Source of the DNA: Escherichia coli
GTDB taxonomy: Bacteria > Pseudomonadota > Gammaproteobacteria > Enterobacterales > Enterobacteriaceae
Direction: 5' to 3' (one strand)
DNA: 64,000 nt
NCBI RefSeq assembly: GCF_050920415.1
Contig: NZ_CP169309.1
The notes below the pieces were generated by a model. It had not been told where the DNA came from. It did not search any database and was given only the letters and a program-made list of their open reading frames with translations. The position numbers and the translations under genes were made by a program. Positions 19,422-46,788 of the stretch are shown in pieces. The stretch's first letter is position 1; each line of letters opens with the position of its first letter.

Positions 19422-20924
19422 TTACGCTACAGCAGCTTTCGCCGCTTTGTCTGCAGCGTCATCCTGCGTCATGCGGTGCAGTTTCGGCGCGGTCAGCAGC
19501 ATCAGTACTGCAATAACGGCAGTAGCGACACCAATCTGCAAGAATACGCGACCATAGACTTCCAGTGACATCAGTGGATCGGTAACGTTATCCGGCACAG
19601 CCATCATACCCGCAACATAACCACCAATCAGGTTTGCACCGGCAGTGGTCAGGAACCAGCTACCCATAATGAAGCCCATCAGACGCTGCGGAACGAGTTG
19701 TGCAACCATTGCCAGACCCAGACCAGAGATCATAAGTTCCCCGATACTCTGCAGGCCATAGCTTGCGACCAGCCAGCTTACAGACACGATACCTGCGTCA
19801 GACGCGAATTTTGCACCCAGCGGCAGAATCAGGAACGCACCAGAACACATCACCATACCGATTGCAAACTTAGTTGGCATCGGCAGGGTATCGCCCATCT
19901 TGTTATAGATAGCGGCCAGAATCGGGCTACCAATGATAATCCAGAACGGGTTCAGTGCCTGATACTGCTCAGGTTCTACGGCCAGGCCCAGAATGGTGTG
20001 TTCAACGTTACGAATCGCAAAGAAGTTCAGTGACGTTGGCATCTGGCTGTACAGCACGAAGAAGATAATGGCTTCGAGCATCAGGATGAAGGCAACGATC
20101 ATTTTACGACGCGCAGCACCTTTCATCGCGAAGGCTTCTTTACCGAAGATAACCACGATACCAAAGGCAACAACGCCCAGCGCCATACGCGCAACTTCCT
20201 GATTGTGCAGCAGCCAGGTGGCGATAGCGATCAGTGCCACAACACCAATAATGGTCAGCAGCAGGTTACGGTAGTTGATAGGCTCGAAGTCTGGTTTTGA
20301 ACCGTACTGTTTAACCCAGCGTTGGCAGAAGGCAAAGTTAACGATAGTGATCAGCAGGCCTACAACGCTCAACGCAAACGCAACACTCCAGCCGTATTTC
20401 GCGGCCAGCCACGGGGTGGCGATCATAGAGAAGAAAGAGCCGATGTTGACGGACATGTAGTACATGGTGAATGCACCGTCCAGACGCGGGTCGTTTTTCT
20501 CATAGCATGTAGAAAGCAGAGAAGACGGGTTAGCTTTAAATAGGCCGTTACCGACCGCAATAGCCGCCATACCCATATAAACGATACCGGCGTCGTGACC
20601 AGACCAGGCAACCAGAGCATAACCAATCGCCAGCACAATAGCGCCAAGCATAATTACGCGTTTAGTACCCAGTACCTTGTCACCTAACCAGCCGCCGATA
20701 GCGACCAGACCATAAACCAGGGCACTAAAGGAAGAGAAAAGGGTGATTGAATCCGCTTCAGACATACCCAGTTGTTTAACCAGGTAAACAGCCATAATTC
20801 CTTGTAGGCCGTAATAACCAAAACGTTCCCATAACTCAATCGAGAAGATGAGATAGAACGCCTTCGGTTGTTTGAAAGCGTTCAAACTGACGCTTTCAGT
20901 TGGTTTTTGGTTTGCAGTGGACAC
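19422..20924 (-). CDS. dtpA: Proton-dependent di/tripeptide permease (POT family)
   Basis: ORF track 500 aa; POT-family sequence with many TM segments. Confidence 0.93.
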
Positions 20925-21508
20925 TTTTACCTCTTTTTTTACATCCCATATTAACGGGGGTGCTTTCTCGCGTTATGCCTAAAAAACATACGCGCAATTG
21001 TTATAGTGGGAGGGGAAACGGCAGGTAATGTTCACTATCTTGCACTTTCAGACAAGTCCTTTGTAATAATCTGTTACATATAACTGAGGCGGGGAATTCA
21101 ACCATTCCGGGAAATGTTATCCAGCGTTAAATTTTTCAAAAAACGTAACGGCAGATTTTTTCACTACCCTGAGAGGGGGATGATGGCTTAACGGCGATAT
21201 GTTCTGCTATTTAGCGTTTTTCCTAGTGAGATAGTCCAGTTTCTGAAAAATAGCCAGTGTAATGTTTTGTAGGTCAATATTTGTTGCGTGTGTAAATTTA
21301 AATGATTTTAACCTAGTTCTTGCAATGTTTTTACATTGCCACAGCATCGTGATCTTGATCACGAATGAATAGAAAATTTCGCTATTAAAAAAACAATTAA
21401 CCTGCATTTTTGGTTATCCGCAAACGGATTACCTGATGATAACGCTAAGCAATGGCATCATTGACGTTAAAAAGATGTTTTAAAAGAGGATAAAGAAAGG
21501 TTATCAAT

Positions 21509-21528
21509 GGGGTAATCGGTGTTACCCC
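21509..21528 (-). terminator. Hairpin immediately downstream of nth (end of rsx-nth operon)
   Basis: GGGGTAA-TCGGTG-TTACCCC stem-loop; the U-tract is imperfect on the minus strand and cleaner on the plus strand. Confidence 0.5.
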
Positions 21529-21534
21529 TTTTCT

Positions 21535-22170
21535 TCAGATGTCAACTTTCTCTTTGTATTCACAAAGATCTTCAATAATACAAGAGCCACAGCGAGGCTT
21601 GCGGGCAATACAGGTATAACGCCCGTGCAGGATCAACCAATGGTGGCAGTCGACTTTAAACTCTGCCGGAACCACTTTCAGTAGCTTTTCTTCTACCTGT
21701 TCGACGTTTTTCCCCGGCGCAAATTGAGTACGATTACAAACGCGGAAAATGTGCGTGTCGACAGCAATAGTCGGCCAGCCGAATGCAGTGTTTAATACGA
21801 CGTTGGCTGTTTTACGACCTACACCAGGCAGGGCTTCAAGCGCAGCACGATCTTCCGGAACCTCGCCATTATGCTGTTCCAGTAAGATACGGCAGGTTTT
21901 GATGATATTTTCTGCTTTGCTGTTATAAAGCCCAATGGTTTTGATATAGGTTTTCACCCCTTCGACGCCCAGTTCAAGCATCGCTGCAGGCGTATTCGCT
22001 ACCGGGTAGAGTTTCGCCGTCGCCTTATTAACACTGACATCGGTCGCCTGAGCGGAAAGCAGTACGGCAATCAGCAATTCAAAAGGCGAACTGAAATTAA
22101 GCTCGGTGGTGGGATGAGGATTGTTCTCACGCAGGCGAGTGAGGATCTCCAGGCGTTTTGCTTTGTTCAT
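21535..22170 (-). CDS. nth: Endonuclease III (DNA glycosylase/AP lyase, [4Fe-4S])
   Basis: ORF track 211 aa; HhH motif and C-terminal Cys cluster (CIARKPRCGSC); last gene of rsx-nth operon. Confidence 0.95.
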   Translation of the reverse strand: MNKAKRLEILTRLRENNPHPTTELNFSSPFELLIAVLLSAQATDVSVNKATAKLYPVANTPAAMLELGVEGVKTYIKTIGLYNSKAENIIKTCRILLEQHNGEVPEDRAALEALPGVGRKTANVVLNTAFGWPTIAVDTHIFRVCNRTQFAPGKNVEQVEEKLLKVVPAEFKVDCHHWLILHGRYTCIARKPRCGSCIIEDLCEYKEKVDI

Positions 22171-45141: not shown

Positions 45142-46788
45142 ATGTCAAACAAACCCTTTCATTATCAGGCTCCTTTTCCACTCAAAAAAGATGATACTGA
45201 GTATTACCTGCTAACCAGCGAACACGTTAGCGTATCTGAATTTGAAGGGCAGGAGATTTTGAAAGTCGCACCCGAAGCGTTAACTCTGTTGGCGCGTCAG
45301 GCGTTTCATGATGCGTCATTTATGCTGCGTCCGGCTCACCAACAACAGGTGGCCGATATTCTGCGTGACCCGGAGGCCAGCGAAAATGATAAATATGTGG
45401 CGCTGCAATTCCTGCGTAACTCCGACATCGCGGCAAAAGGCGTTCTGCCAACCTGTCAGGATACCGGCACCGCGATTATTGTTGGTAAAAAAGGGCAGCG
45501 TGTATGGACCGGTGGCGGTGATGAAGCAGCGCTGGCGCGCGGTGTCTATAACACTTATATCGAGGATAATCTGCGCTACTCGCAAAACGCGCCGCTGGAT
45601 ATGTATAAAGAGGTGAATACCGGCACTAACTTACCAGCGCAGATCGATCTTTATGCCGTTGATGGTGACGAGTACAAATTCCTCTGTATCGCCAAAGGTG
45701 GCGGTTCGGCAAACAAGACGTATCTCTATCAGGAAACCAAAGCGTTACTGACGCCGGGAAAACTGAAAAATTACCTGGTTGAGAAGATGCGCACGCTGGG
45801 TACGGCGGCCTGTCCTCCGTATCATATTGCGTTCGTTATTGGTGGAACTTCTGCAGAAACGAATCTTAAAACGGTGAAACTGGCTTCCGCTAAATACTAT
45901 GATGAACTGCCAACGGAAGGGAATGAGCACGGTCAGGCGTTCCGCGATGTGGAACTTGAAAAAGAATTGCTGATCGAAGCGCAAAATCTTGGTCTGGGTG
46001 CGCAGTTTGGTGGTAAATACTTCGCTCACGACATCCGCGTGATTCGCCTGCCACGTCACGGCGCATCCTGCCCGGTCGGTATGGGTGTCTCCTGTTCTGC
46101 TGACCGTAATATCAAAGCGAAGATCAACCGTCAGGGGATCTGGATCGAAAAACTGGAACATAATCCAGGCAAATATATCCCGGAAGAGCTGCGCAAAGCG
46201 GGAGAAGGCGAAGCGGTGCGCGTTGACCTTAACCGTCCGATGAAAGAGATCCTCGCACAGTTGTCGCAGTATCCCGTTTCTACACGCTTATCGCTGAATG
46301 GCACGATTATCGTCGGTCGTGATATTGCTCACGCCAAACTGAAAGAGCGGATGGATAACGGTGAAGGGCTGCCGCAGTACATCAAAGATCATCCGATTTA
46401 CTATGCGGGTCCGGCCAAAACGCCGGAAGGTTATGCCTCCGGTTCTCTTGGCCCAACGACCGCCGGACGGATGGATTCTTATGTCGATCAACTGCAAGCG
46501 CAGGGCGGCAGTATGATCATGCTGGCGAAAGGCAACCGCAGCCAGCAGGTGACGGATGCCTGTAAAAAACACGGCGGTTTCTACCTCGGTAGTATCGGTG
46601 GTCCGGCAGCAGTATTGGCGCAGGGAAGTATTAAGAGCCTGGAATGTGTTGAATATCCGGAACTGGGAATGGAAGCCATCTGGAAAATTGAAGTAGAAGA
46701 TTTCCCGGCGTTTATCCTTGTGGATGATAAAGGAAATGACTTCTTCCAGCAGATACAACTCACACAGTGCACCCGCTGTGTGAAATAA
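45142..46788 (+). CDS. fumA: Fumarate hydratase class I (Fe-S, aerobic)
   Basis: ORF track 548 aa ([29 protein letters not shown]...). Confidence 0.95.

Follow-up and report, generated by a model that had tools for sequence, protein, structure and literature searches.

The window analysed here is a stretch of 64,000 nucleotides of Escherichia coli DNA (RefSeq assembly GCF_050920415.1, contig NZ_CP169309.1). The open reading frame listing and a comparison with K-12 MG1655 identify the part from 17.8 to 24.5 kb as the pdxY-gstA-dtpA-nth-rsxEGD region of E. coli, in reverse orientation. Two of its genes enclose the region of interest:

19422..20924, minus strand: dtpA (other names tppB and ydgR), encoding a proton-coupled di/tripeptide permease
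21535..22170, minus strand: nth, from the open reading frame listing

Between them, upstream of dtpA, lies the nth–dtpA intergenic region (20925..21534, 610 bp), equivalent to MG1655 1712159..1712768 (the MG1655 coordinate is 1733693 minus the window coordinate). Its GC content is 0.315–0.42, versus about 0.5 in the flanking genes, and no gap in the annotated 8-kb stretch of MG1655 is longer, the others measuring 0–105 bp. A first, sequence-only reading had called it an unusually long, AT-rich gap upstream of dtpA; coordinates, GC content and gap lengths all agree with that description. No feature is annotated within it in MG1655 (NC_000913.3) or in the PGAP genomes. The gap was found in 5422 of 5426 complete E. 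coli genomes at 95–100% identity. Across it the window differs from MG1655 at nine positions, none of which falls in the conserved blocks or the CRP box described below. We conclude that this is an ordinary regulatory region, from which dtpA is controlled.

How widely is this arrangement shared? Our footprint sample comprised 80 enterobacterial dtpA loci, one genome per species, from more than 25 genera. In all 80, nth lies directly upstream of dtpA, and the gap measures 570–640 bp in 70 species. In Kosakonia, Phytobacter and their relatives it is 1060–1185 bp long because a divergent gene for a 141-aa UPF0093 membrane protein, which we take to be HemJ-like, has been inserted. The inserted gene sits between nth and the dtpA control region (nine loci).

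The dtpA promoter and its leader

The dtpA-proximal part of the gap contains the following features:

20925..21020, minus strand: dtpA 5' UTR, about 96 nt; a hairpin occupies 20969..20994, and AGAGG at 20930..20934 is the Shine-Dalgarno sequence
21027..21055, minus strand: core dtpA promoter, consisting of the −35 element TTGTCT (21055..21050), a 17-bp spacer and the weak −10 element AACATT (21032..21027)
about 21037..21096, minus strand: OmpR-bound region, given by a ChIP-exo peak, with tandem half-sites TGTAACAGAT / TATTACAAAG at 21058..21083

The OmpR-bound region corresponds to the dtpA peak in the ChIP-exo data of Seo et al. (2017), located at U00096.2 1710621-1710680, classed as activator and centred at −46.5. 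It is almost invariant in our alignment and covers the invariant TATATGTAACAGATTATTACAAAG; at the core promoter, GATAGTGAACATTAC is invariant in 80 of 80 species. From the centre of the peak and its −46.5 position we infer a dtpA transcription start at about 21020 (MG1655 about 1712673). Both this coordinate and the mapping of the peak depend on an offset from U00096.2 to MG1655 that we take to be about +1976, uncertain by 1–2 bp, and that agrees with the SELEX coordinate given below. Mapped in this way, the literature coordinates place OmpR occupancy just upstream of a weak −35/−10 pair, as at an OmpR-activated promoter, and the earlier claim that the gap holds the OmpR-dependent dtpA promoter is upheld.

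Low OmpR activates transcription of dtpA, and high OmpR represses it. A PdtpA reporter extending from −201 to +15 alone reproduces OmpR control, and the repression at high OmpR is seen with this fusion. It follows that the distal module described below is unnecessary for OmpR control. A recurrent A-to-T SNP, designated ‘nth/dtpA +503/-108’, arises in long-term stationary-phase cultures, increases dtpA mRNA about 23-fold and was described as adjacent to the −10 element (PMC7858067). Its position is window 21032, the first base of the −10 element itself, which changes from AACATT to TACATT. Two further regulators, GadX and YdcI, have been reported to bind upstream of dtpA.

The leader carries the sole conserved-structure signal in the gap. 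We calculated a structure conservation index, the RNAalifold consensus energy divided by the mean single-sequence energy, in sliding windows across 22 genera. It reached 0.41 in the 5' UTR in the dtpA sense, and the arms of the hairpin at 20969..20994 vary between genera with their complementarity kept. In antisense to dtpA codons 9–18, on the plus strand, stands a separate terminator-like hairpin (20872..20899) of 11 pairs, with TTGGTTTTTG after it; the hairpin would also form in early dtpA mRNA.

The palindrome and the CRP box

Farther from dtpA lies the palindrome that the sequence-only reading had picked out, at the coordinates it gave (21347..21364). Its 8-bp arms, TCGTGATC (21347..21354) and GATCACGA (21357..21364), are 100% complementary. 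How much weight can such symmetry bear? A perfect inverted repeat with 8-bp arms and a loop of 0–10 appeared in 300 of 2000 dinucleotide shuffles of the region (15%), and the whole window contains 45 repeats of that kind. The pattern GTGA-N6-TCAC occurs twice in the window, versus 0.84 occurrences expected; the other exact match is at 46319..46332 (GTGATATTGCTCAC). Symmetry alone is within chance; the significance of the palindrome rests on conservation and on published binding.

Such binding has been reported at this very place. In the Genomic SELEX study of Shimada (2011; PMC3105977), tppB, that is dtpA, is among 119 newly identified CRP targets. The supplementary row reads ‘nth> >tppB CGTGATCAAGATCACG 1.71036e+06’, and both the 16-mer and its location are identical to the palindrome core. 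The corresponding feature is:

21345..21366, no strand assigned: cAMP-CRP binding site, a 22-mer with a 16-bp core at 21348..21363 and its centre at 21355.5, from the SELEX listing and the footprint

The palindrome falls inside this 22-mer. In the dtpA direction the core (21363..21348) reads CGTGATCAAGATCACG, of the form GTGA-N6-TCAC. The cAMP-bound CRP dimer recognises TGTGA-N6-TCACA and bends the DNA. Each half-site of CGTGATCAAGATCACG matches TGTGA/TCACA at four of five positions, and the 16-mer matches the symmetric CRP consensus, which we take to be TGTGATCTAGATCACA, at 13 of 16. In its two-fold symmetric TGTGA-N6-TCACA core and its binding of cAMP-CRP in vitro, the site resembles the class I/II sites of the lac and galP1 type. 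We conclude that the palindrome is an already published cAMP-CRP box, bound in vitro in Genomic SELEX. The suggestion that the gap binds an additional regulator was thus correct, given the exact 16-mer in the CRP SELEX table and the conservation of the CRP half-sites, and such binding was already known rather than new. Our literature search found no CRP occupancy in vivo and no CRP- or cAMP-dependent expression of dtpA. The palindrome was also read as an FNR site (motif TTGAT-N4-ATCAA), a reading we rejected: the conserved half-site is GTGA, not TTGA.

What has been conserved at the box? Of the 80 species, 51 have GTGA-N6-TCA at the conserved place and 32 the fuller TGTGA-N6-TCAC. The 6-bp spacer varies freely (TCAAGA, TTAGAA, TCGCGA, AGTTGA, TACAGA and others) while the half-sites are kept, so the perfect 8-bp arms are an E. 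coli accident on a conserved CRP site. Most genera carry TGTGA, which is nearer the consensus, versus CGTGA in E. coli; a divergent assembly labelled ‘E. coli’ carries TGTGATCAATCTCACA at the box. Footprinting of the palindrome, a check that the sequence-only reading had itself put forward, thus returns a divided answer: the CRP half-sites are conserved across the 80 species, and the perfect arms are specific to E. coli. In several Kosakonia the box has degenerated at its usual position, with a further CRP-like box some 138 bp upstream of it; the CRP site is therefore dispensable at that exact place. Most of the loci with the UPF0093 insertion likewise have a CRP-like box about 138 bp farther upstream, and in these loci the box at the usual place is often degenerate.

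Conserved blocks and their spacing

The gap around and beyond the CRP box contains these features:

21112..21134, minus strand: AAATTTAACGCTGGATAACATTT, a nearly invariant element with conservation digits of 8–9, about −92 to −114 relative to the transcription start
21190..21270, minus strand: block B, ACAAAACATTACACTGG..TTTTTCAGA..CTATATCACTG..ATAGCAGAACATATCGCC, from the conservation profile
21207..21407, minus strand: 66-codon open reading frame (66 aa), from the open reading frame listing; spurious
21320..21339, minus strand: second inverted repeat, GCAATGT/ACATTGC (arms 21322..21328 and 21333..21339), from direct reading of the E. coli sequence
21366..21406, minus strand: block A, comprising CAGGTTAAT, a T7 run and AAATTTCTATA, with 70–99% identity in 72 aligned species
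21410..21508, no strand assigned: nth-proximal spacer, unconserved and indel-rich among genera in profile and alignment
21509..21528, minus strand: GC-rich hairpin directly after the nth stop codon, from folding and a terminator call

Conservation starts abruptly at 21406, at the edge of block A (family consensus TAACACTTAAACAGGTTAATCGTTTTTTT...AAAATTTCTATA), spans the CRP half-sites and then falls; it returns in block B and is nearly complete from 21134 to the start codon. The nth-proximal 125 bp or so, including the hairpin at 21509..21528, are not conserved. The element AAATTTAACGCTGGATAACATTT, upstream of the OmpR ChIP-exo peak, is almost invariant across the 80 species and may be bound by YdcI or GadX, the two regulators reported upstream of dtpA. 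Where E. coli has its second inverted repeat, most other genera carry a direct repeat, TGTTR-N6-TGTTR, with 11-bp spacing, of the kind recognised by response regulators such as ArcA or OmpR; it is clear in Enterobacter and Trabulsiella. TGTT is present at the first position in 48 of 80 species, at the second in 39 and at both in 34; the E. coli repeat is degenerate (TGTAA-N6-TGCAA).

The distances between these blocks scarcely vary. In 51 of 53 species 41 bp separate block A from the CRP half-site, and in 50 of 54 block B lies 153 bp from that half-site; the distance between block B and the −10 element is exactly 175 bp in 70 of 70 species. The distances from AAATTTAACGCTGGATAACATTT to its neighbouring blocks are 77 bp (61/61 species) and 53 bp (68/68), and the final inter-block distance before the −10 element is 45 bp in all 80 species. 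From the CRP site to the −10 element the distance is 328 bp in 53 of 61 species. The stretches between the blocks, for example 21346..21271, are heavily diverged despite this constancy. Length varies in the 5' UTR (104–111 bp) and in the nth-proximal part of the gap, whose total length ranges from 570 to 638 bp, and the dtpA-proximal 480 bp or so are constant in length. The roughly 370 bp upstream of the dtpA −10 element are thus essentially indel-free across more than 25 genera, an observation that is new here. Freedom from indels, combined with diverged sequence between the blocks, points to a spacing-locked assembly of several regulators.

Might the CRP box nevertheless be a fortuitous high-affinity site, functionally neutral? 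CRP binds many sites in vitro from which no regulation follows; the palindrome by itself does not exceed chance and is far from any known start, and both its degeneration in several Kosakonia and the tolerance of insertions in the gap would fit neutrality. But a neutral site is hard to reconcile with half-sites that hold a fixed position in 51 of 80 species beside heavily diverged stretches, or with their constant spacing to the flanking blocks, and we consider this explanation improbable.

Does any of this conservation reflect coding? The 66-codon open reading frame exists where the earlier reading had marked it (21207..21407, minus strand), and the doubt expressed there was justified. It is intact solely in the window and in MG1655 (2 of 72 sequences), which are nearly identical E. 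coli here. Only 38 codons are left in another E. coli and in two other Escherichia, and 15 in E. albertii. In other genera it has no start codon, and the aligned segment is 200 nt long, out of frame by 1 nt. A small protein would account for the open frame with its ATG in the window and MG1655, but truncation within Escherichia, the missing start elsewhere and the frame broken by a 1-nt length difference all speak against it. A Pfam search returned no match, and both PGAP and the MG1655 annotation omit the frame. The probability that a protein is encoded there is, in our judgement, negligible. We found no other conserved small open reading frames in the gap; the sole 100% conserved ATG was an artefact of the anchor motif used.

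The simplest reading of the hairpin at 21509..21528 is a terminator for the rsx–nth operon. It folds with −12.5 kcal/mol (z −2.4) in the nth sense and −12.8 kcal/mol (z −1.5) on the plus strand. The terminator-like call was made on the plus strand, where the hairpin reads as the better terminator because of an E. coli-specific A-run. Neither its sequence nor its plus-strand T-tail is conserved, and both are absent even in E. albertii.

Could the hairpin instead end a small RNA? A CRP-dependent transcript on the plus strand, divergent from dtpA, might run from about 21410 to the hairpin and T-run at 21509..21535, some 125 nt. The hairpin is followed by TTTTCTTC, a −10-like TAACCT at 21398..21403 is kept in 89% of species, and block A would serve as promoter and 5' end. 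Spot 42 and CyaR offer a parallel, in that an intergenic CRP box is accompanied by a same-strand downstream hairpin and T-run at the dtpA gap too. The parallel fails in that the gap has no conserved RNA body, terminator, structure or Rfam match. Indeed no part of the gap is less conserved than the putative body (21410..21534), and the hairpin with its T-tail is missing even in E. albertii; the structure conservation index is 0, the fold z-score merely −1.9 and no Rfam match was obtained. CRP would lie at −54.5 with no −35 element, and an nth terminator explains the hairpin adequately. We regard such an RNA as very unlikely. Over the whole gap an Rfam search at E ≤ 1 gave no match, and from 21535 to 21060 the structure conservation index was about 0 on both strands. 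The proposal of an unannotated small RNA in the gap is therefore not supported: there is no Rfam match, no conserved structure, no conserved terminator and no promoter-like site in the consensus scan.

How the distant CRP site may act

If CRP binds so far upstream, how might it influence dtpA? Class I and class II CRP sites are centred at −41.5, −61.5, −72.5 or similar positions. The dtpA site differs from those of class I/II promoters in its distance, for its centre (21355.5) lies at about −335.5 from the only documented start, outside the class I/II range. We scored −10-like hexamers in all species by their distance from the CRP centre. No conserved −10 was found at the class II (30 bp) or class I (50, 60 and 71 bp) offsets in either direction; the conserved −10-like hexamers give only non-canonical CRP positions (−28.5 or −54.5 on the plus strand and −100.5 on the dtpA strand). 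A class II CRP promoter in either direction was accordingly rejected, there being no conserved −10 at 30–35 bp from the centre. A scan for consensus sigma-70-like promoters over 20700..21750 gave 0 sites, versus 2.6 expected. Among the rows listed in the supplements of Adams (2021) and Kim (2012), none places a 5' or 3' end in the gap. A site some 335 bp upstream, with no conserved class I/II −10 element, is unlikely to contact RNA polymerase in the textbook manner.

Could CRP instead drive a distal promoter, P2, reading towards dtpA with a leader of about 370 nt? In E. coli a strong −10-like TAAAAT (21310..21305; score 7.4) lies 46 bp from the CRP centre. The pattern TAnnnT is kept in Escherichia, Citrobacter and Salmonella (GGTTAAAnT), and on this view block B and the element at about −100 would owe their conservation to being part of the leader. 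At such a promoter, however, CRP would stand at about −57.5, off the canonical −61.5 phase, with no −35-like hexamer at a usable spacing. The −10-like hexamer scores well in just 36% of species, the consensus scan is promoter-free and the would-be leader has no conserved RNA structure. We consider P2 unlikely.

Two further ideas gained no support. Motifs for sigma-54, IHF, H-NS, Lrp, TyrR and CytR gave only partial matches when the sequence was read for them, and none is claimed. A Dam-methylation switch at the two GATC sites was dismissed, since relatives, E. albertii among them (TGTGATTAGAATCACA), have lost the first of them.

The reading we lean towards, and hold to be reasonably probable, is an assembly of several regulators with fixed geometry, to which CRP contributes the distal bend in the DNA and through which it modulates the weak OmpR-dependent dtpA promoter. 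We infer both that CRP regulates dtpA and that it acts at a distance through the architecture of the DNA. Taken in the dtpA direction, the assembly would be laid out as follows. First would come the hairpin that terminates nth, followed by some 125 bp of spacer under no constraint, and then a distal conserved module made up of block A, the cAMP-CRP site centred at 21355.5 and the repeat of response-regulator type. Block B would follow, then the near-invariant element at about −100. The proximal part would consist of the OmpR sites, the weak sigma-70 promoter (TTGTCT-17-AACATT, start at about 21020) and the 5' UTR of about 96 nt. The bend induced by CRP would join a spacing-locked complex in which OmpR, GadX and YdcI, all reported to bind the region in vivo, may take part; Lrp or ArcA would be further candidate members. 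The complex would adjust the OmpR-dependent promoter to carbon starvation, which would fit a role in peptide scavenging. In having a nutrient-scavenging transporter as the target, dtpA resembles other CRP-controlled peptide and carbon-starvation genes. Three observations weigh against the reading: OmpR control is seen with the −201 fusion, the box is degenerate at its usual position in several Kosakonia, and engineered insertions in the gap are tolerated.

Is there a known system with a comparable geometry? In the upstream region of ompF a distal OmpR site, F4, at about −380 to −361, mediates repression by looping. Like ompF, dtpA has tandem proximal OmpR sites and a conserved distal element (about −327 to −386), and it too responds to OmpR with activation at low and repression at high levels; moreover, a direct repeat of response-regulator type adjoins the dtpA CRP box in most genera. 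It differs from ompF in that the OmpR ChIP-exo table contains only the proximal dtpA peak and in that repression at high OmpR is already obtained with the −201 fusion.

The repeat also invites comparison with ArcA boxes. Salmonella tppB is reportedly induced anaerobically; leucine as well as anaerobiosis can induce it. In Shewanella, ArcA-P binds the promoter of that organism's own dtpA. In an ArcA box the centres of two direct repeats are 11 bp apart (Park 2013), and TGTTR-N6-TGTTR, with its 11-bp spacing, lies beside the CRP box in 34 of 80 species. On the other hand, the E. coli repeat is degenerate (TGTAA-N6-TGCAA), and the repeats of OmpR-family regulators cannot be told apart here by sequence. 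The main text of the E. coli ArcA ChIP paper makes no mention of dtpA.

A more specific version of the mechanism would have the CRP bend at −335 and the adjacent OmpR/ArcA repeat loop onto the proximal OmpR sites, in an assembly common to the Enterobacteriaceae. We put this forward tentatively and think it more doubtful than probable. If true, it would constitute a long-range switch resembling that of ompF F4, which would bring carbon, redox and envelope signals to a single peptide-transporter promoter.

Large constructs and promoter libraries have been integrated into the chromosome at the nth–ydgR gap, which serves as a landing pad (PMC2847246; Urtecho preprints), and no harm has been reported from these integrations. 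A region popular as a neutral site is nonetheless a densely conserved, spacing-constrained control region, and because of that conservation insertions there may disturb the control of dtpA in a position-dependent manner. The SELEX-listed nth/tppB CRP box gains a firm evolutionary footing from this analysis, and the phantom open reading frame and the phantom small RNA drop out of consideration. Mutations in the dtpA promoter are repeatedly selected in long-term stationary phase, and through a conserved distal CRP module peptide scavenging would be tied to carbon starvation.
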